Assembly (NCBI RefSeq): GCF_003334385.1
Contig: NZ_QOWN01000077.1
Length of the DNA stretch: 6,256 bases
Origin: Escherichia coli
Lineage (GTDB): Bacteria > Pseudomonadota > Gammaproteobacteria > Enterobacterales > Enterobacteriaceae
Direction: 5' to 3' (one strand)
Position numbers and translations under genes: made by a program. Below the pieces are notes generated by a model. That model was not told the DNA's origin. It worked only from the letters and a program-made list of their open reading frames with translations, and searched no databases. Shown in pieces: positions 1 through 6,256 of this stretch. Within the stretch, counting starts at the first letter, position 1. Every line of letters begins with the position of its first letter.

Positions 1-20
1 TTATCGTGAGAGTAATTCAT
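1..20 (-). CDS. insL: IS186 transposase, first 6 codons only (MNYSHD); remainder lies outside the window
   Basis: Minus-strand ATG AAT TAC TCT CAC GAT beginning at position 20, 55 bp inside the putative IS terminus at 75. Six codons alone are weak evidence; the call depends on the adjacent inverted-repeat match. Confidence 0.45.
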
Positions 21-75
21 CGGCACGTTAAATCATATCAGGCGTAATACCACAACCCTTAAGTTAGCGCTTATG
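1..75 (-). mobile_element. IS186 (IS4 family) terminal segment; element continues beyond the window start
   Basis: Plus-strand 53-75 caacccttaagttagcgcttatg is the reverse complement of CATAAGCGCTAACTTAAGGGTTG, which I recall as the 23-bp terminal inverted repeat of IS186. On the minus strand an ATG at 20..18 opens MNYSHD, matching the recalled N-terminus of the IS186 transposase InsL. All three plus-strand frames are closed by stops within 1-67, so the flanking cynR frame cannot extend upstream. Identification is from memory, not a database search. Confidence 0.6.
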
Positions 76-341
76 GGCTACATCCACAGGTGGTCATTGA
101 GGCGAACTCAATTAGCGCGGTTCTGGAGCTGATTCGCCGCACTTCCCTTTCCACATTGTTACCAGCAGCGATTGCCACACAACATGACGGGCTTAAAGCT
201 ATTTCTCTTGCCCCGCCACTACTGGAGAGAACGGCGGTTTTGTTGCGGCGGAAAAATAGCTGGCAGACAGCCGCCGCGAAGGCATTTTTGCACATGGCGT
301 TGGATAAATGCGCGGTTGTTGGCGGAAATGAATCACGGTAG
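76..341 (+). pseudogene. cynR: 3' fragment of cynR (LysR-family regulator of the cyanate operon), truncated at the IS186 junction
   Basis: The frame translates ..[86 protein letters not shown] and ends at TAG 339-341, which matches the CynR C-terminus as I recall it. An in-frame TAA at 60-62 lies inside the putative IS inverted repeat, so only about 88 C-terminal codons of a ~299-aa protein remain here. Convergent orientation with codA matches the K-12 codA/cynR arrangement. Confidence 0.75.
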
Positions 342-369
342 CCGCTGACACAGGTCTGCGGCTGGAATT

Positions 370-449
370 GCCTGATGCGCTACGCTTATCAGGCCTACGA
401 GTTCAGTGCTCTACGTAGGCCGGATAAGGCGTTCACGCCGCATCCGGCA
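370..449. repeat. REP pair (BIME-like): gcctgatgcgctacgcttatcaggcctac (370-398) and inverted gtaggccggataaggcgttcacgccgcatccggca (416-449)
   Basis: Classic enterobacterial REP palindromes (GCCTGATGCG...TTATCAGGCCTAC and GCCGGATGCGGCGTGAACGCCTTATCCGGCCTAC families), in inverted orientation. Confidence 0.8.
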
Positions 450-569
450 TAAACTACAGCTGGCAGACAGCCGCTGCGAAGGCATTTTTGCACATGGCGT
501 TGGAGGAATGCGCGGTTGTTGGCGGGAATGAATCACGGTAGCCGCTGACACAGATCAGCGGCTGGAATT

Positions 570-649
570 GCCTGATGCGCTACGCTTATCAGGCCTACGA
601 GTTCAGTGCTCTACGTAGGCCGGATAAGGCGTTCACGCCGCATCCGGCA
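570..649. repeat. Second copy of the REP pair, within tandem-duplication copy 2
   Basis: Same sequences as 370-449 shifted by 200 bp; lies just 3' of the codA stop (678-680) and so is placed to act as the codBA 3' stem-loop or terminator. Confidence 0.8.
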
Positions 650-677
650 TAAACTAAGCTCGCTGTAACCCAGTCGT

Positions 678-1961
678 TCAACGTTTGTAATCGATGGCTT
701 CTGGCTGCTCCAGATATACGGTGGTTTGTGCCGGTTGTGTGCTGGCAATCACCTTGCCGCCACGTACCGAATAACGTACCGGAACCTGACGGCGCAGCGC
801 ATCAAACCCATTTTCAGCCGGCAGGATAATCAGGTTGGCGCTGTTTCCGGCGGCAATGCCGTAATCCTGCAAATTCAACGTCCTTGCGCTGTGGTGGGTG
901 ATTAAATTCAGGCCATCGTTAATCTGCCCGTAGCCCATCAACTGGCAAACATGCAGCCCCATATGCAGCACTTGCAGCATATTCGCCGTTCCCAGCGGAT
1001 ACCACGGATCGAAGACATCATCGTGACCAAAGCAGACGTTAATGCCGGACTCCAGCATCTCTTTAACGCGCGTGATGCCGCGACGTTTTGGATACGTATC
1101 GAAACGTCCTTGCAGATGAATATTGACCAGCGGGTTGGCGACAAAGTTAATACCGGACATTTTCAGCAAGCGGAACAGGCGTGAGGTATACGCCCCGTTA
1201 TAGGAGTGCATTGCCGTGGTGTGGCTGGCGGTGACTCGCGCGCCCATGCCTTCATGGTGCGCCAGGGCAGCAACGGTTTCGACAAAGCGCGACTGCTCGT
1301 CATCGATCTCATCACAGTGAACGTCGATGAGACGGTCGTATTTTTGCGCCAGGGCGAAGGTTTTATGCAGCGACTCCACGCCGTATTCACGGGTAAATTC
1401 AAAATGCGGAATCGCCCCCACTACATCTGCCCCTAAGCGTAACGCCTCTTCCAGCAACGCTTCACCGTTGGGATACGACAAAATCCCTTCCTGAGGGAAG
1501 GCGACGATTTGCAGATCAATCCACGGCGCGACTTCCTGCTTCACTTCCAGCATTGCTTTCAGCGCAGTTAGCGTTGCATCCGAAACATCGACATGGGTAC
1601 GCACATGCTGAATGCCGTTGGCAATCTGCCATTTCAGCGTTTGCCATGCGCGTTGTTTCACATCGTCATGGGTTAATAACGCTTTGCGCTCGGCCCAGCG
1701 TTCAATGCCTTCAAACAGCGTGCCGGACTGATTCCAGTTCGGTTGTCCGGCGGTTTGCGTGGTGTCCAGGTGAATATGTGGCTCCACAAACGGCGGTATA
1801 ACTAAACCTTGTTCGGCATCCAGGCTGTTTTCAGTTATGGGCATCACGCCGGATTGCGCATCAATGGCGCTGATTTTTCCGTCCTGCAGATGAATCTGCC
1901 ACAGCCCCTCTTCGCCTGGTAACCGGGCGTTAATAATTGTTTGTAAAGCGTTATTCGACAC
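678..1961 (-). CDS. codA: Cytosine deaminase (amidohydrolase superfamily), 427 aa, GTG start
   Basis: Translation [38 protein letters not shown]...[10 protein letters not shown] matches E. coli CodA as recalled, with the metal-binding motifs PHIHLD, VHCDE and CFGHDD. The ORF track starts at ATG 1976, but the known protein begins 5 codons later at GTG 1961..1959, preceded by GGAGG (minus-strand ATGTGGAGGCTAACAGTG). Stop TGA at 680..678. Confidence 0.95.
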
Positions 1962-3210
1962 TGTTAGCCTCCACATGCGTCATTGCTGCTGTCGTTTTAC
2001 GATTCAAAATCGGGTTAAGGATCAGATAGCTCAGCGCGCCACCTAATACCGCGTTGACCGGAACAATTCCCGGTAACCAGTGGCCTGCAGCAATCCCCAA
2101 GGCGACCGCCAGAATCGCCACCCAATTGACACTCATCATACGCGTGGTCGCAAAGTGCTCATAGCGGCGACGGTTCATCAGATAGTCGGCGATGATCACG
2201 CCACCCACTGGAGGAATAGCTGCCGAAAGGAAGGTCAACCAGCCGACAAAATTGTTATACAGCCATAATGCGCAGACCGTACCGATAATACCGTTGATTA
2301 CCGAAAGGGTTTTGCTCGACATCCCGGTAATGTTGGCGAAACCTAAACCCGACGCATAGAGTGCGTTATCGTTGGTGGTCCAGATATTCAGCCCCAGCAC
2401 CACAATCGCAGGCAGCAGCAGGCCCTGAGCAATCATCACATCAGAGATATCCGCCATGCCCAGTGCCGCAGCGCCCGCTGCACCGAAAATAAACATCAAC
2501 GAGTTGCCGAGGAAAAAGGCCACCATCGCCACCAGCACCGCCAGTTTGGCATTGCGACCAAACCGGACAAAGTCAGCGGTGAGCGTACCCGCACTGATAA
2601 ATGACCCCACAACCAGCGCCAGCGCGACATTGAAATCTAACGGTTGTGCGGGAACGACCGCTTTTAATGCGTCCAGGCCGCCCATGCCGTTAACAGCCAG
2701 CCACACGGAATAACCGCCCAGGCAGGCGATAGCCGGAACCGCAATCACCGAAAGAACCGTCAGCGCCGAAATGCCAAAAAAGACGGTGACGGTCATCAGT
2801 AAACCGGAAACGGCAATCAGCAAATTAATATCCAGCCCGGTTGCCTTACCCACCGGAATGGCAAACATCGCCACACCGACGCCAAACCAGCCAACCTGAG
2901 TTCCGCCCAGTAGCAGTGAAGGCAGCCATGAGCCTTTAACACCAAACGAGAAGCGAGCAAGAAGATGAGTGGTCAGGCCGGTTTTTGCGCCAATGTAACC
3001 GAGAAATGAAGTGTAAATACCGAGGAGAAGATTACCGATGAGAACTGCGAGGAAGAAATCATGATAGCTAAGACCGGTTCCGAGAGTGCCGCCGGTCCAC
3101 ATACTGGCGGAAAAGAAGGTTAATCCCAGCATGACGAACGTCAATGCCAATACCCCTTTCCGCGCCGACTGCGGGACTGGCCCCTGGCTAAAGTTGTTAT
3201 CTTGCGACAC
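1951..3210 (-). CDS. codB: Cytosine permease (NCS1 family transporter), 419 aa, GTG start
   Basis: Translation [33 protein letters not shown]...THVEANSVE matches E. coli CodB as recalled and is a hydrophobic multi-helix membrane protein. GTG start at 3210..3208 with AAGGGGGA Shine-Dalgarno upstream; stop TAA at 1953..1951 overlaps the codA start by 11 bp. Confidence 0.95.
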
Positions 3211-3276
3211 GAAATTCCCCCTTTTTGCTGTTTGAAACCCAAAAAATCCGCCGCATTCTATTCATCTGAAGATAAA

Positions 3277-3292
3277 AAGCAATCGTTTTCGT
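3277..3292 (-). promoter_or_regulatory. Putative PurR operator (PUR box) of the codBA promoter
   Basis: Minus-strand ACGAAAACGATTGCTT matches the PurR consensus ACGCAAACGTTTGCGT at 13 of 16 positions. It lies about 70-85 bp upstream of the codB GTG, consistent with known purine repression of codBA. Confidence 0.5.
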
Positions 3293-3297
3293 GGGGA

Positions 3298-3325
3298 AAT
3301 ATATTTTTTATATGAATGAGTGCAA
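3298..3325 (-). promoter_or_regulatory. Candidate sigma70 promoter for codBA: -35 TTGCAC (3325..3320), 16-bp spacer, -10 TATATT (3303..3298)
   Basis: Read from the minus strand: TTGCAC TCATTCATATAAAAAA TATATT, placing the transcription start near the PUR box. Motif-level prediction only. Confidence 0.3.
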
Positions 3326-3362
3326 AAAGGTGGGGGAAAAATTATCGGTGTAAAAACAGTGG

Positions 3363-3543
3363 GTAGGCCTGATAAGACGCGTCAGCGTCGCATCAGGCAT
3401 CTGAGCATGGTGTCGGATGCGACGCGAGCGCCTTATCCGACCTACGGTTCAGGTCCGTAGGCATGATAAAACGCGTCAGCGTCGCATCAGGCATCGGCAC
3501 ACAGTGCCGGATGCACCGCGCGACGCATCCGACAATAACCTAC
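3363..3543. repeat. BIME cluster of four REP elements in alternating orientation (3363-3399, 3411-3445, 3458-3494, 3506-3543)
   Basis: gtaggcctgataagacgcgtcagcgtcgcatcaggca, tgtcggatgcgacgcgagcgccttatccgacctac, gtaggcatgataaaacgcgtcagcgtcgcatcaggca and gccggatgcaccgcgcgacgcatccgacaataacctac form two ~95-bp units. The last REP overlaps the stop codon of the upstream ORF (TAG at 3542..3540). Confidence 0.8.
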
Positions 3544-3812
3544 TCTTCCATCGCCTGGCGGATCTGATCCAACGACGCAGGATCATCAATGGTCGTCAGA
3601 TCTCCAGGATCGCGTCCTTCGCAAATCGCCTGGATCGTGCGGCGCAGCATTTTTCCGGATCGCGTTTTTGGCAATTGCGAGACAAACCAGACGTGCGCCG
3701 GGCGGCCAAAGTTGCCAATCTGGCTGTCCACCAGCGCCATAATCGCCTTCTCTTGCGAGTGCGCCACATCACGATCTTCCAGACTGTCGCTCTCTTTCGG
3801 AATGACAAACGC
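3540..3812 (-). pseudogene. prpE: 3' remnant of prpE (last ~89-92 codons plus native stop), fused to yahJ
   Basis: Acyl-CoA synthetase C-terminal signature LPKTRSGKMLRR, and a position immediately upstream of codB separated only by the REP cluster, as for prpE-codB in K-12. The junction is inferred near 3805-3830 (protein ..DASCSAEAVA / FVIPKESD..). Confidence 0.75.
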
Positions 3813-5126
3813 CACCGCCTCGGCGGAACAGGAGGCGTCCACCAGCACAAAGCTGGCGTCATCCTGCGCTTTTGGCCATACACGCTCGCCTTTTTCATTC
3901 AGCGGCAATACATCGCCAGTGGCTAAAAACAGCGAGCGGGAGAGGTTCTGTTCGTTAGGACGAATATAGAGCTGCGCGTACAGATTGGCTTTTTCCAGCA
4001 TGTCGCCCAGACCATAAGGCGACCAGTGGTCGATAACGCTGTCAGTGCCAGTCATCACTTTTACGCCTTTGTCGTGCAACTGTTTGAGCGGCATATGCAG
4101 CGTGCCAATCGGCACCGTCGAGGCGATAGAAATTTGTTGCACCACCATCCGGTTCGCCAGTTCATCTACCTGTTGCTCGTTGAGCGTTGCCAGCGCAAAG
4201 GCGTGACTGATGGTCAGCTTGCCCTTCAGCTGTGGCGTTTTCTCTACCGTTTCAACCATATAATTGATGGCTGCCACGCCTGCCGGAGTGGTTTCGTGCA
4301 GGTGAATATCGACGCCTTTGTCGTAGTCCAGCGCAATCTGGAACATGGTGTCGAGGGATTTTTCCATCGCGCCATCAACACTGGTCGGGTCCAGGCCGCC
4401 GACGTAATGCGCCCCCGCCTGCATCGCTTCACGCATTAAAGGTTCAGATTTCGACAGCAGCAAACCGTGCTGCGGGAAGGCGACGATTTCACACTCAAAG
4501 CCCGCCTGACGTCGCGCCAGCACCGCCTGCAAATTTTGCAGATTTTTCAGGCCGGAAACCGGTTCGATATTGCAGTGGCTGCGGGCAATGGTGGTGCCTT
4601 TCGACTGCAATAAATCAATCAGTTTTTCTGCCCGCTCCTGAGTGTACGGTTGCAGTTCCGGCAGCATTTTCTGCTCGAGTTTGATCATGTCCTGGATGGT
4701 GGTGCCTGCCGGACGATTGAGCGAGCGCCACGGCCCGCCGTAAAAGGTTTTGTCGAGATGAATATGCATGTCGCGGGTGGTGGGCAGCATCAGCTTACCG
4801 CCAGCGTCATAGTGCGGCAGCGTGGCGTCCGGATGCAGCTTGTTCTCGCGCAGGGCGACAATTTTGCCGTCCTGAATCTCCACGGTCTGGCGCGCCGTGC
4901 GGGTCTGCACCGCCACGCCATTTTCGTAGTCAAAACCGGTTTCCAGCAGCACGTTATCGAGATAGTAATGCGGGTCAGTGATTTTCATGGTGTTGTTCGC
5001 TTCGCAGTTTAGGGTGCCAGCTACCGCCGCATGGGCGAGCGGCACAGAGGTACCAAACAGCGCGGCGGCGGTGACCATCTTACCGCTCTGGCTCAGAAAT
5101 TCACGGCGGCTATTGCTTTCTTTCAT
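3540..5126 (-). CDS. yahJ: Chimeric ORF, 528 aa: Tat-signal amidohydrolase (YahJ-like putative deaminase, ~439 aa) fused in frame to the C-terminal 89 aa of propionyl-CoA synthetase PrpE
   Basis: N-terminus MKESNSRREFLSQSGKMVTAAALFGTSVPLAHA carries a twin-arginine motif (SRREFL). The body has amidohydrolase motifs DMHIHLD, DIHLHET and GTDSVIDHW. The C-terminus FVIPKESDSLEDRDVAHSQEKAIMALVDSQIGNFGRPAHVWFVSQLPKTRSGKMLRRTIQAICEGRDPGDLTTIDDPASLDQIRQAMEE contains the acyl-CoA synthetase PKTRSGK motif and matches the PrpE C-terminus as recalled. ATG at 5126..5124 with AAGGA upstream. Confidence 0.8.
   Translation of the reverse strand: MKESNSRREFLSQSGKMVTAAALFGTSVPLAHAAVAGTLNCEANNTMKITDPHYYLDNVLLETGFDYENGVAVQTRTARQTVEIQDGKIVALRENKLHPDATLPHYDAGGKLMLPTTRDMHIHLDKTFYGGPWRSLNRPAGTTIQDMIKLEQKMLPELQPYTQERAEKLIDLLQSKGTTIARSHCNIEPVSGLKNLQNLQAVLARRQAGFECEIVAFPQHGLLLSKSEPLMREAMQAGAHYVGGLDPTSVDGAMEKSLDTMFQIALDYDKGVDIHLHETTPAGVAAINYMVETVEKTPQLKGKLTISHAFALATLNEQQVDELANRMVVQQISIASTVPIGTLHMPLKQLHDKGVKVMTGTDSVIDHWSPYGLGDMLEKANLYAQLYIRPNEQNLSRSLFLATGDVLPLNEKGERVWPKAQDDASFVLVDASCSAEAVAFVIPKESDSLEDRDVAHSQEKAIMALVDSQIGNFGRPAHVWFVSQLPKTRSGKMLRRTIQAICEGRDPGDLTTIDDPASLDQIRQAMEE
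5028..5126 (-). other. Predicted Tat (twin-arginine) signal peptide of the YahJ-like protein, ~33 aa, likely cleaved after AHA
   Basis: S-R-R-E-F-L motif followed by a hydrophobic stretch VTAAALFGTSVPL and an AxA site (AHA|AVAG). Confidence 0.55.
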
Positions 5127-5135
5127 CTTACGTCC

Positions 5136-6086
5136 TTACGTTTTAATAATATGAGTGCCCGTTTCGCCGCGCAGCGCCGCAGGCAGGCATTCCGGCGTGG
5201 TGATAATCACTTCTTTGCCGCCTTGTTCTAAAAATGTCAGGCTGGCGATGATTTTTGGCAACATGCTGCCGGGCGGGAAATGCCCTTCCTGCATATAGCG
5301 GGTCATGGTGGCAATATCCACCCGATCGAGCGCCTGCTGCTGCGGTTTGCCAAAGTGAATACACACTTTTTCGACGCCAGTGGTGATCACAAGAATGTCG
5401 GCGTGAATTTCACGGGCCAGCAGCGCGGTAGAGAGATCTTTGTCGATAACCGCGTCCACGCTTTGGTAATCTCCCGCGTCAGTACGCACTACCGGAATTC
5501 CACCGCCGCCCGCGCCAATTACGACAAAACCTTGTTGGATCAGCGCTTTAATGGCAGGTGCTTCGACAATACGTTTCGGTTCCGGCGAGGCGACCACGCG
5601 GCGATAGCCCCGCCCGGCATCTTCAACAAAACACCAGTCAGGGTTTGCCTTTTGTAATTCGTCACGCTGGCTGTCACTAAAGAATGCGCCGATGGGCTTG
5701 GTGGGATGGGCAAAACCTGGATCGTTTTTATCCACTTCCACCTGAGTCACCACGGTGACGGCTTTCTTCTCGCCGTGACGCGCCAGCCGGTTATTCAGCG
5801 CCTGTTGGATCAGATAGCCGATGCCGCCCTGCGTATCTGCCACACAGTTCGCCAGCGGCGTTAAGGGCAGCCCTTCGCGCTTGTGGGCAATCTCCGCACG
5901 GCGTAAATCCAGCCCGACCTGCGGCCCGTTGCCGTGGGTCAGCACAATGTCGTAATCGGAAGCCAGCATTTCCAGCACCGTATCGGCGACGGCTTTCACC
6001 GCCTCCGCCTGATGCTCAATCGACTGGCTGGCGTTATCTTTGATAATGCTGTTGCCACCAATGGCAACGACCACAAGCTCTTTCAT
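5136..6086 (-). CDS. yahI: Carbamate kinase-like protein (amino acid kinase family), 316 aa
   Basis: Translation MKELVVVAIGGNSI...LTHGNGPQVG...VIGAGGGGIPV... carries carbamate kinase / amino-acid-kinase signatures and matches E. coli YahI as recalled. Stop TAA at 5138..5136 lies 9 bp upstream of the yahJ ATG, suggesting an operon. Confidence 0.9.
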   Translation of the reverse strand: MKELVVVAIGGNSIIKDNASQSIEHQAEAVKAVADTVLEMLASDYDIVLTHGNGPQVGLDLRRAEIAHKREGLPLTPLANCVADTQGGIGYLIQQALNNRLARHGEKKAVTVVTQVEVDKNDPGFAHPTKPIGAFFSDSQRDELQKANPDWCFVEDAGRGYRRVVASPEPKRIVEAPAIKALIQQGFVVIGAGGGGIPVVRTDAGDYQSVDAVIDKDLSTALLAREIHADILVITTGVEKVCIHFGKPQQQALDRVDIATMTRYMQEGHFPPGSMLPKIIASLTFLEQGGKEVIITTPECLPAALRGETGTHIIKT

Positions 6087-6136: not shown

Positions 6137-6256
6137 GCCTGATGCGCTACGCTTATCAGGCCTACAATTCTCGCGCCACTCGTAGGCCGGATAAGGCGTT
6201 CACGCCGCATCCGGCAATGGTGACAAATGCCTGATGCGCTACGCTTATCAGGCCTA
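6137..6256. repeat. BIME/REP cluster of at least three REPs (6137-6165, 6182-6216, 6229-6256), running off the window end
   Basis: gcctgatgcgctacgcttatcaggcctac, inverted gtaggccggataaggcgttcacgccgcatccggca, then gcctgatgcgctacgcttatcaggccta; the same REP family as at 370-449. Confidence 0.8.

Follow-up and report, generated by a model that had tools for sequence, protein, structure and literature searches.

Between the convergent genes cynR and codA of Escherichia coli the same 200 bp occur twice in tandem. Two questions are raised by this locus: how the repeat arose and changed, and whether it takes part in ending the transcripts of its two neighbours. We analysed it in a stretch of 6,256 bp (contig NZ_QOWN01000077.1, assembly GCF_003334385.1); this whole stretch is called the window, and positions refer to it unless K-12 is named. 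A sequence-only reading of the window had proposed a duplication that is not recent and that probably acts as a bidirectional terminator or RNA-stabilising element.

In the window the end of an IS421 element (1–74) cuts cynR, which is present as a 3' fragment on the plus strand (75–341, stop codon TAG at 339–341, following the annotation of the 100% identical strain E308). This fragment corresponds to profile positions 219–298 of the NCBIfam CynR equivalog. The gene codA, coding for cytosine/isoguanine deaminase, lies on the minus strand (678–1976, stop codon 678–680), and the two convergent genes enclose an intergenic region of 336 bp. Positions 231–720 are base for base those of E. coli K-12 MG1655 (NC_000913.3, intergenic region 357455–357790); K-12 positions are obtained by subtracting the window position from 358132.

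The repeat consists of two tandem 200-bp units on the plus strand, 258–457 and 458–657. A repeat search of the window gave a direct repeat of 258–456 and 458–656 with 97% identity and a spacing of 200, Tandem Repeats Finder reported 258–660 with a period of 200, 2.0 copies and a score of 755, and a pairwise alignment of the units agrees with both. The proposed tandem duplication of the cynR 3' end, a hairpin and a REP pair between convergent genes is thereby confirmed. Each unit starts at a cynR codon boundary and comprises the last 27 cynR codons with the TAG, a GC-rich stem–loop and a z1/y REP pair. In copy 1 the coding part is the real cynR 3' end, followed by stem–loop 1 and REP pair 1; in copy 2 it is a ghost of the cynR tail (458–541), followed by stem–loop 2 and REP pair 2. 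In the RefSeq annotation the ghost appears as a partial pseudogene without its N-terminus.

The units differ at 275/475 (C>T), 305/505 (T>G), 306/506 (A>G), 326/526 (A>G), 354/554 (G>A) and 357/557 (T>A). A seventh difference, C at 457 against A at 657, completes units of exactly 200 bp. Both copies read 27 residues and a TAG, with LEEC in copy 2 where copy 1 has LDKC, as had been noted; the coding changes amount to two nonsynonymous and two synonymous ones (GCC>GCT and GGA>GGG), not to a single synonymous change beside LDKC/LEEC. All six internal differences fall into the first 100 nt of the unit, and the REP half is identical over 99 nt (358–456 and 558–656). With a uniform spread of differences, the chance of all six being confined to the first 100 nt is 0.016.

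That the second copy might be an artefact of assembly or sequencing, for which only the general risk that repeats trouble assemblers can be named, has practically no probability and is already refuted. The identical sequence stands in the K-12 MG1655 reference, the repeat junction is found in 1,517–1,541 complete genomes, which were produced in many laboratories and on many platforms, and seven fixed sites separate the copies. The comparison with a reference genome, which had been suggested as a check, thus finds the same two copies in K-12 MG1655, and among the alleles described below the single-copy form appears to be the older one. The duplication is an ordinary feature of the K-12 reference and has already been described: Ton-Hoang et al. 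(2012; PMC3333891) list the codA–cynR fragment as a gene fragment carried with a BIME.

The REP pairs occupy 369–449 and 569–649 and have identical sequences. In the first pair, which is REP28 of K-12 (357685–357763, window 447–369), an inverted z1 REP (370–398) is joined by a linker (399–414) to a y REP (415–449). The naming of the two REPs as z1 and y follows the consensus sequences of these types. The z1 REP ends in CTAC and the y REP starts with GTAG, and the motif GTAGGCCKGATAAG is found at 385–398 and 585–598 on the minus strand and at 415–428 and 615–628 on the plus strand, with a chance expectation of 0.04. The pair folds with −41.3 kcal/mol. Both elements belong to the REP sequences (palindromic units), which are characterised as imperfect palindromes of 30–40 nt with a conserved GTAG 5' of the foot of the stem.

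BIME-1 elements combine z1 and y REPs with a long conserved L linker, frequently carry an IHF site and occur as single copies (PMC3333891). Identity with BIME-1 was considered and rejected, the linker being 16 nt long and the unit standing in tandem; the IHF consensus WATCAANNNNTTR had no match within 342–657 with one mismatch allowed. Because of the 16-nt linker without IHF consensus, the pair is by the definitions of PMC3333891 an atypical BIME and not a BIME-1: it unites z1 and y REPs across a short linker and occurs in zero to three copies among strains. It resembles other REP/BIME elements in the inverse orientation of its z1 and y units, in the GTAG at the foot of the stem, in its site between convergent genes and in its strain-variable presence and copy number; BIMEs are known to differ between strains in both respects (PMC3333891). 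Unlike a bare BIME of about 80–100 nt, the 200-bp unit takes in 81 coding nt as well as an unrelated stem–loop. Rfam matches of naRNA4 on the y REPs stayed below threshold (39 bits, where the gathering score is 59.5). The naRNA4 family is the RNA linked to REP325.

We then surveyed 5,426 complete E. coli genomes for the counts and read the allele structures from selected loci. The shortest allele has 39 bp between the genes (strain 120899), no REP pair and a perfect 10-bp hairpin, AGCCACTGAC-ACAG-GTCAGTGGCT; it is present in 1,706 of the 5,426 genomes (31%). One unit with the full hairpin makes an intergenic region of 146 bp (strain 0H25), and one unit from which the 14-nt right arm of the hairpin is deleted makes 132 bp (O157:H7, SWYHX138; 814 genomes, 15%). 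Two units give the 336 bp of K-12 and the window, or 345 bp with a 9-bp duplication in one linker (FG31-1). NCTC122 has two 186-bp units, both without the right arm, which corresponds to 308 bp as calculated from the unit lengths, and CRE78 has three units (536 bp). The remaining genomes lack cynR or show other forms; the cyn operon has been reported to be absent from phylogroup B2 (PMC2617782).

The repeat junction, and with it at least two copies, was found in 1,541 of the 5,426 genomes (about 28%; 1,517 at E ≤ 1e-60). Three copies, recognised by a copy 2-to-copy 2 junction, are present in 199 genomes (about 3.7%); this count relies on identity to that junction, since coverage of a three-copy query misleads, shorter alleles covering it as well. 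More than two junctions, that is four or more copies, occurred in none of the 5,426 complete genomes. Among strains the copy number varies from one to three. The view that the duplication is not recent is borne out by the junction, which stands on at least five different combinations of cynR and codA haplotypes and is carried by about 28% of the complete genomes. The divergence of about 3%, from which this age had been argued, does not serve as a measure of it: depending on the strain, the copies differ at two internal sites (three if unit position 200 is counted) to nine, with zero differences in the REP half.

To assign a direction to the copy differences, E. whittamii alone was used as outgroup, the sole close relative in a scan of species genomes by its cynR (97% identical); at the Pseudocitrobacter, Citrobacter, Pluralibacter and Klebsiella loci that were read, cynR is followed by unrelated sequence. 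In E. whittamii there is one unit, with its REP pair and a hairpin that carries the paired A, and the codons are GAT GAA (LDEC). The single-copy E. coli alleles that were read, collapsed ones aside, have GAG GAA (LEEC) and a G at the position of 326, and the A that closes the mismatch is also found in the 39-bp allele. From these alleles it follows that the lysine of copy 1, A326 and T357, which forms the U·U mismatch, are derived, T357 because neither E. whittamii nor the 39-bp allele has it. By the same comparison T475 and A554 of copy 2 are derived, and the polarity of D/E at 305 is ambiguous. The ghost in copy 2 thus keeps older states for the most part; if anything it is the more conservative copy, and copy 1 is the derived one. 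Two earlier statements have to be turned round. The pairing in copy 2 is not restored, the paired A being the state retained from the ancestor as in E. whittamii and the 39-bp allele; and a change from LDKC to LEEC has the wrong direction for the K/E pair, in which E is ancestral and K derived, D/E staying ambiguous.

The duplication junction, AAACTAC|AGCTGG at 457–458, is blunt. The same junction was found in all multi-copy alleles that were read (K-12 type, CRE78, FG31-1, C11, 1919D3 and NCTC122). In E. whittamii the right flank of the unit reads AAACTAC followed by GCTCGCT, and the last copy of C11 also ends in AAACTAC; because both show the ancestral flank GCTCGCT after AAACTAC, the unit is exactly 258–457. 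Judged by these flanks, A657 of the K-12-type genomes arose later. Since the bases beside the two breakpoints differ (T against C, A against G), there is no microhomology and the join cannot be slid. An AGCT microhomology or an AGC|T join was tried as an alternative and rejected: the right flank that it requires, AAACTACAGCTCGC, is found in 0 of the 5,426 genomes, the best match reaching 98.6%.

The order of events would then be as follows. At first only the GC-rich stem–loop may have abutted the cynR stop codon, as in the 39-bp state. The z1/y REP pair, the atypical BIME, would have arrived beside this stem–loop and given rise to the 146-bp allele, which is also the state of E. whittamii. A single nonhomologous join, AAACTAC|AGCTGG, would have doubled a segment that begins 81 nt inside cynR and ends 8 nt beyond the y REP, and this founding duplication would have left a promoterless and start-less ghost of the cynR tail.

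Two observations speak against this account. First, a blunt join free of microhomology has no obvious mechanism; second, the same junction is found on the NCTC122 units, with their 14-nt deletion and private changes in the REP pair, and on the distinct cynR haplotype of 1919D3. The junction shared by NCTC122 and 1919D3 could reflect a recurrent site-specific duplication instead of one origin with subsequent recombination and homogenisation, and the NCTC122-type array may have a second, independent origin.

An enzyme that could have made the duplication, possibly more than once, is the REP-associated tyrosine transposase TnpA_REP or RAYT (yafM in K-12; rayT at K-12 247637–248134 in a supplementary table of bioRxiv 10.64898/2026.03.23.713779). 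Acting at the REP pair, it would cut single-stranded DNA at a distance and rejoin it, so that the BIME is amplified and flanking cynR sequence with it. This mechanism was put forward for the present locus by Ton-Hoang et al. (2012; NAR 40:3596; PMC3333891), who name codA–cynR itself as a gene fragment sequestered by such amplification. In vitro, cleavage occurs more than 400 nt from a BIME. In agreement with this, every unit holds a complete REP pair, the right end of the unit falls on the tetranucleotide CTAC, 4 nt away from the y REP foot, and the identical junction stands on several haplotypes, including units with a common 14-nt deletion. However, the enzyme joins the 3'-OH of a C to a 5' T, C|T being required at both cleavage sites, and this C|T step is not seen at the junction, where the top strand reads C|A and the bottom strand T|G. 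The ancestral right flank in C11 and E. whittamii fixes the breakpoints, and the flank needed for an exact AGC|T join is the one absent from all 5,426 genomes. Moreover, homologous recombination predicts the third copy and the collapsed alleles just as they are found, which sets the later copy-number changes apart from amplification by TnpA_REP. A one-base change at the junction may have followed the founding event. Because the junction is without the required C|T step, we keep RAYT as a rival for the founding event only and regard its action as rather unlikely.

Once two copies existed, the array would grow and shrink between one, two and three copies by unequal homologous crossing-over, chiefly within the 99-nt REP half. 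The three-copy allele has the order copy 1–copy 2–copy 2, with the junction C at the end of the middle copy, and in CRE78 copy 3 equals copy 2 except for the last base. This order is what a crossover within the identical REP half should yield after copy 2 has mispaired with copy 1. The reciprocal kind of product is found as well: a synthetic query of copy 1 through the REP pair, joined to the K-12 right flank, has 100% matches in H10407 (ETEC), OV2 and others, and altogether 44 of the 5,426 genomes hold a one-copy allele that matches this predicted collapse of a K-12-type pair. The one-copy alleles of H10407 and OV2 are like copy 1 through position 357. The single copy of CT29 switches from copy 1 to copy 2 between 306 and 326; judged by its sites, it is an independent collapse with another crossover point. 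Hybrid copies of the kind that crossovers within a tandem repeat predict are thus present.

The collapsed allele of OV2 was also considered as an event on a laboratory time scale, a view that was rejected. Against K-12, OV2 shows 3 mismatches in about 27 kb of flanks and 14 in the 8 kb next to the locus; because of these 14 mismatches its one-copy allele may have been imported.

Within every multi-copy strain the REP halves of the copies are identical, even where they carry strain-private changes as in NCTC122, and the left halves differ at two to nine sites. The same unequal exchange would homogenise the REP half between copies, and the left half would stay divergent through the anchoring of copy 1 to the resident cynR allele of the strain. 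The products of copy-number change are observed; the mechanism looks like crossing-over. The locus shares with other VNTRs that evolve by unequal crossing-over the segregation of one, two and three copies in the species, extra and collapsed alleles that are crossover hybrids, and a REP half that evolves in concert while the gene-anchored half does not. It is unlike them in its long unit of 200 bp and its range of only one to three copies. We know of no typing scheme based on this 200-bp repeat.

We considered two alternatives for a role of the repeat in transcription. First, the stem–loops could form a bidirectional intrinsic terminator, with an adaptive change in copy 2 that strengthens the hairpin; second, they could protect or pause the ends of transcripts that are terminated by Rho.

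Both stem–loops, on the plus strand, begin inside a TAG, in copy 1 the cynR stop codon. Stem–loop 1 (339–364) has 7 bp, the U·U mismatch, 3 bp and a 4-nt loop (−15.9 kcal/mol, z = −4.6), and stem–loop 2 (539–564) has 10 unbroken bp and a 6-nt loop (−17.2 kcal/mol, z = −5.7). The proposed folding check thus returned stable structures for both copies, far more stable than shuffled controls, which suits a terminator. On the minus strand the values are −13.8 kcal/mol for copy 1 and −17.3 kcal/mol for copy 2. That the copy 2 hairpin is the stronger one therefore holds, and T357>A557 does close the mismatch; the advantage is modest, 1.3 kcal/mol on the cynR-sense strand and 3.5 kcal/mol on the codA-sense strand, because G354>A554 takes away the innermost C–G pair and shortens the stem. 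In every multi-copy allele read that keeps the right arm, copy 1 has the U·U mismatch and the later copies have an A–U pair in its place, a regularity that counts for the terminator view. It has to be set against the ancestral state of the paired A, by which nothing was restored in copy 2.

Across six hairpin alleles one stem pair switches between A–U and G–C, with two A·C intermediates, which likewise counts for this view. This covariation is nevertheless no better than that of shuffled alignments, 201 of 500 of which reach the observed score. The right arm of the hairpin is absent from the 814 genomes with the 14-nt deletion (15%), in which the hairpin is left with −2.6 kcal/mol. An Rfam search gave no match for the stem–loop. 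Across the alleles the stem–loop predates the REP pair and has mostly been retained.

An intrinsic terminator consists of a GC-rich stem–loop with a U-tract directly 3' of it. The GC-rich stem–loop is present; a U-tract or T-run was not found after either stem–loop or REP pair on either strand, and a terminator scan found no site at the hairpins or at the REP pairs. The stems are followed by GGAATTGC on the plus strand and by ACCGTGAT on the minus strand. A GC-rich hairpin between convergent genes is what the locus has in common with intrinsic bidirectional terminators, and REPs between convergent genes do overlap many predicted ones, but the lack of a U-tract on both strands sets it apart. 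Furthermore, a bicyclomycin-sensitive transcript of K-12 runs through the region. Taken together, a bidirectional intrinsic terminator with an adaptive copy 2 is very improbable. The earlier suggestion of a bidirectional terminator or RNA-stabilising element thus loses its first half, there being neither T-run nor terminator call, and its second half appears plausible in view of the behaviour of other REP elements.

A Rho-dependent terminator region is recognised by a C-rich, G-poor untranslated RNA (rut) and by its sensitivity to bicyclomycin. The evidence for Rho comes from published K-12 data in re-tabulated form. A table in the supplement to a 2026 preprint on the function of REP elements (bioRxiv 10.64898/2026.03.23.713779) places a Rho-binding (rut) peak at K-12 357791–357902, which is 230–341 of the window on the minus strand, in codA sense and antisense to the cynR 3' end. 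According to the same source, the peak overlaps a bicyclomycin-sensitive transcript (357599–358534) and lies 28 nt from REP28. In the window it overlaps the coding part of copy 1, and the bicyclomycin-sensitive transcript starts at 533, just past stem–loop 2 in the codA direction and at the edge of the ghost. The C/G ratio of the minus strand is 1.86 for 230–341, 1.71 for 258–341 and 2.0 for the ghost (458–541). The ghost is C-rich and G-poor like the rut region, and the reads or probes behind the published K-12 coordinates may cross-map between the two copies, which are 97% identical. A search for mapped 3' ends of codA or cynR found none, and supplements of Adams et al. 2021 mention neither gene.

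Dar and Sorek (2018; PMC6061677) reported REP elements and other stem–loops, as protective structures, at the 3' ends to which transcripts terminated by Rho are trimmed. The locus resembles these ends in its stable stem–loops without U-tract upstream of a C-rich, G-poor stretch; the rut peak and the bicyclomycin-sensitive transcript mapped here in K-12 may be a further likeness. In addition, REPs between convergent genes have been reported together with higher expression of both genes.

The REP pairs and stem–loops would act as barriers to 3' exonucleases and as pause sites for Rho-terminated transcripts, and read-through from codBA would be terminated by Rho on the C-rich antisense strand of the cynR tail or of its ghost. 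In the light of the K-12 data and of what other REP elements do, the repeat is most likely a barrier or pause module tied to Rho-dependent termination and not an intrinsic bidirectional terminator. The duplication of this module is probably close to neutral. Seen as a whole, we consider it likely that the repeat is an old 200-bp tandem duplication of one origin, remodelled since by unequal crossing-over, with a barrier role in Rho-dependent termination and little effect on fitness. A further reading, quite improbable in our estimate, takes the 200-bp unit as a self-contained insulator cassette in the codA direction, composed of REP pair, stem–loop and rut site. A REP-associated enzyme that creates the identical junction recurrently is a possibility related to it. 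If the insulator reading were true, the ghost would shift the place where Rho terminates transcripts reading through from codBA, so that it lies outside the real cynR, and the copy number (zero to three) would tune antisense transcription into cynR.

To the description already on record our analysis adds how frequent the copy numbers are among 5,426 complete genomes, which way the copy differences are polarised, and the finding that the junction has no C|T step, as the proposed mechanism by a transposase would lead one to expect. The locus may offer a small natural test case for the expansion of BIME arrays, in which recA can be set against rayT, and likewise a test case for whether extra REP/rut modules insulate convergent genes.

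The repeat junction, that is, the join between two units of the 200-bp repeat, was also found elsewhere. Among the plasmid records of the E. coli genome set it occurs at 7-14 places; the plasmids concerned are possibly F-primes that include the lac region. In NZ_CP130447.1 (2545629-2545859) two junctions are present with a spacing of 200 bp, and this sequence therefore contains three copies. The annotation beneath this match shows a DUF6531 (Rhs-type) protein in place of codA and cynR, which suggests a rearrangement at this site.

Further variants of the array are found in other strains. The array of NCTC122 consists of two copies with 186-bp units, and in both units the hairpin that starts in the cynR stop codon lacks its 14-nt right arm. 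The units also have two private changes of the y REP in common, whereas numerous differences separate the halves that derive from cynR. Such an array reflects either homogenisation of its two copies or an independent second origin that produced an identical junction. In FG31-1 a 9-bp tandem duplication, CTACGAGTT CTACGAGTT, is situated at the boundary of the z1 REP and the linker (positions 596-613 of locus L007); it affects copy 1 only and accounts for the length of the intergenic region of 345 bp in this strain. The allele of THO-010 is a single-copy allele in which the start of the y REP has been removed by a 16-nt deletion.

A weak terminator-like site, comprising a 5-bp stem followed by ATTTTT, was identified on the minus strand, i.e., in codA sense (window 275-252). 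It is located exactly where copy 1 begins on its left side and lies within the published rut peak, the Rho-binding peak of K-12; the count of terminator-like sites was not above that in shuffled sequences.

The first 74 positions of the window (1-74) are the end of an IS421 element of the IS4 family, which is inserted in cynR. Consequently, cynR of the source genome is reduced to a 3' fragment of 267 nt (75-341). Positions 1-3819 are matched at 100% in the strains E308, RM10410, EC416, and MEI4BO-21, and more than 80% of the window is covered in only one of the 5,426 complete E. coli genomes. On the minus strand an in-frame fusion ORF of 528 amino acids was found (3540-5126, junction at about 3820-3836). 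Its residues 49-447 match a YahJ-type amidohydrolase and its residues 431-528 the C-terminus of PrpE. The next gene is yahI (5136-6086), and this arrangement implies a deletion spanning roughly yahK to prpD.

Two other REP clusters are present in the window. The first is situated in the prpE-codB intergenic region (3363-3470). The second adjoins yahI (6137-6256) and is a z1/16-nt linker/y/z1 array, sharing its architecture with the REP pair of the 200-bp repeat. Between prpC and codA (8 kb) OV2 differs from MG1655 by 14 mismatches, compared with 3 in the surrounding 27 kb. The prpB-prpC intergenic region comprises 346 bp in OV2 compared with 439 bp in MG1655, and this difference may be another length polymorphism of a REP array.
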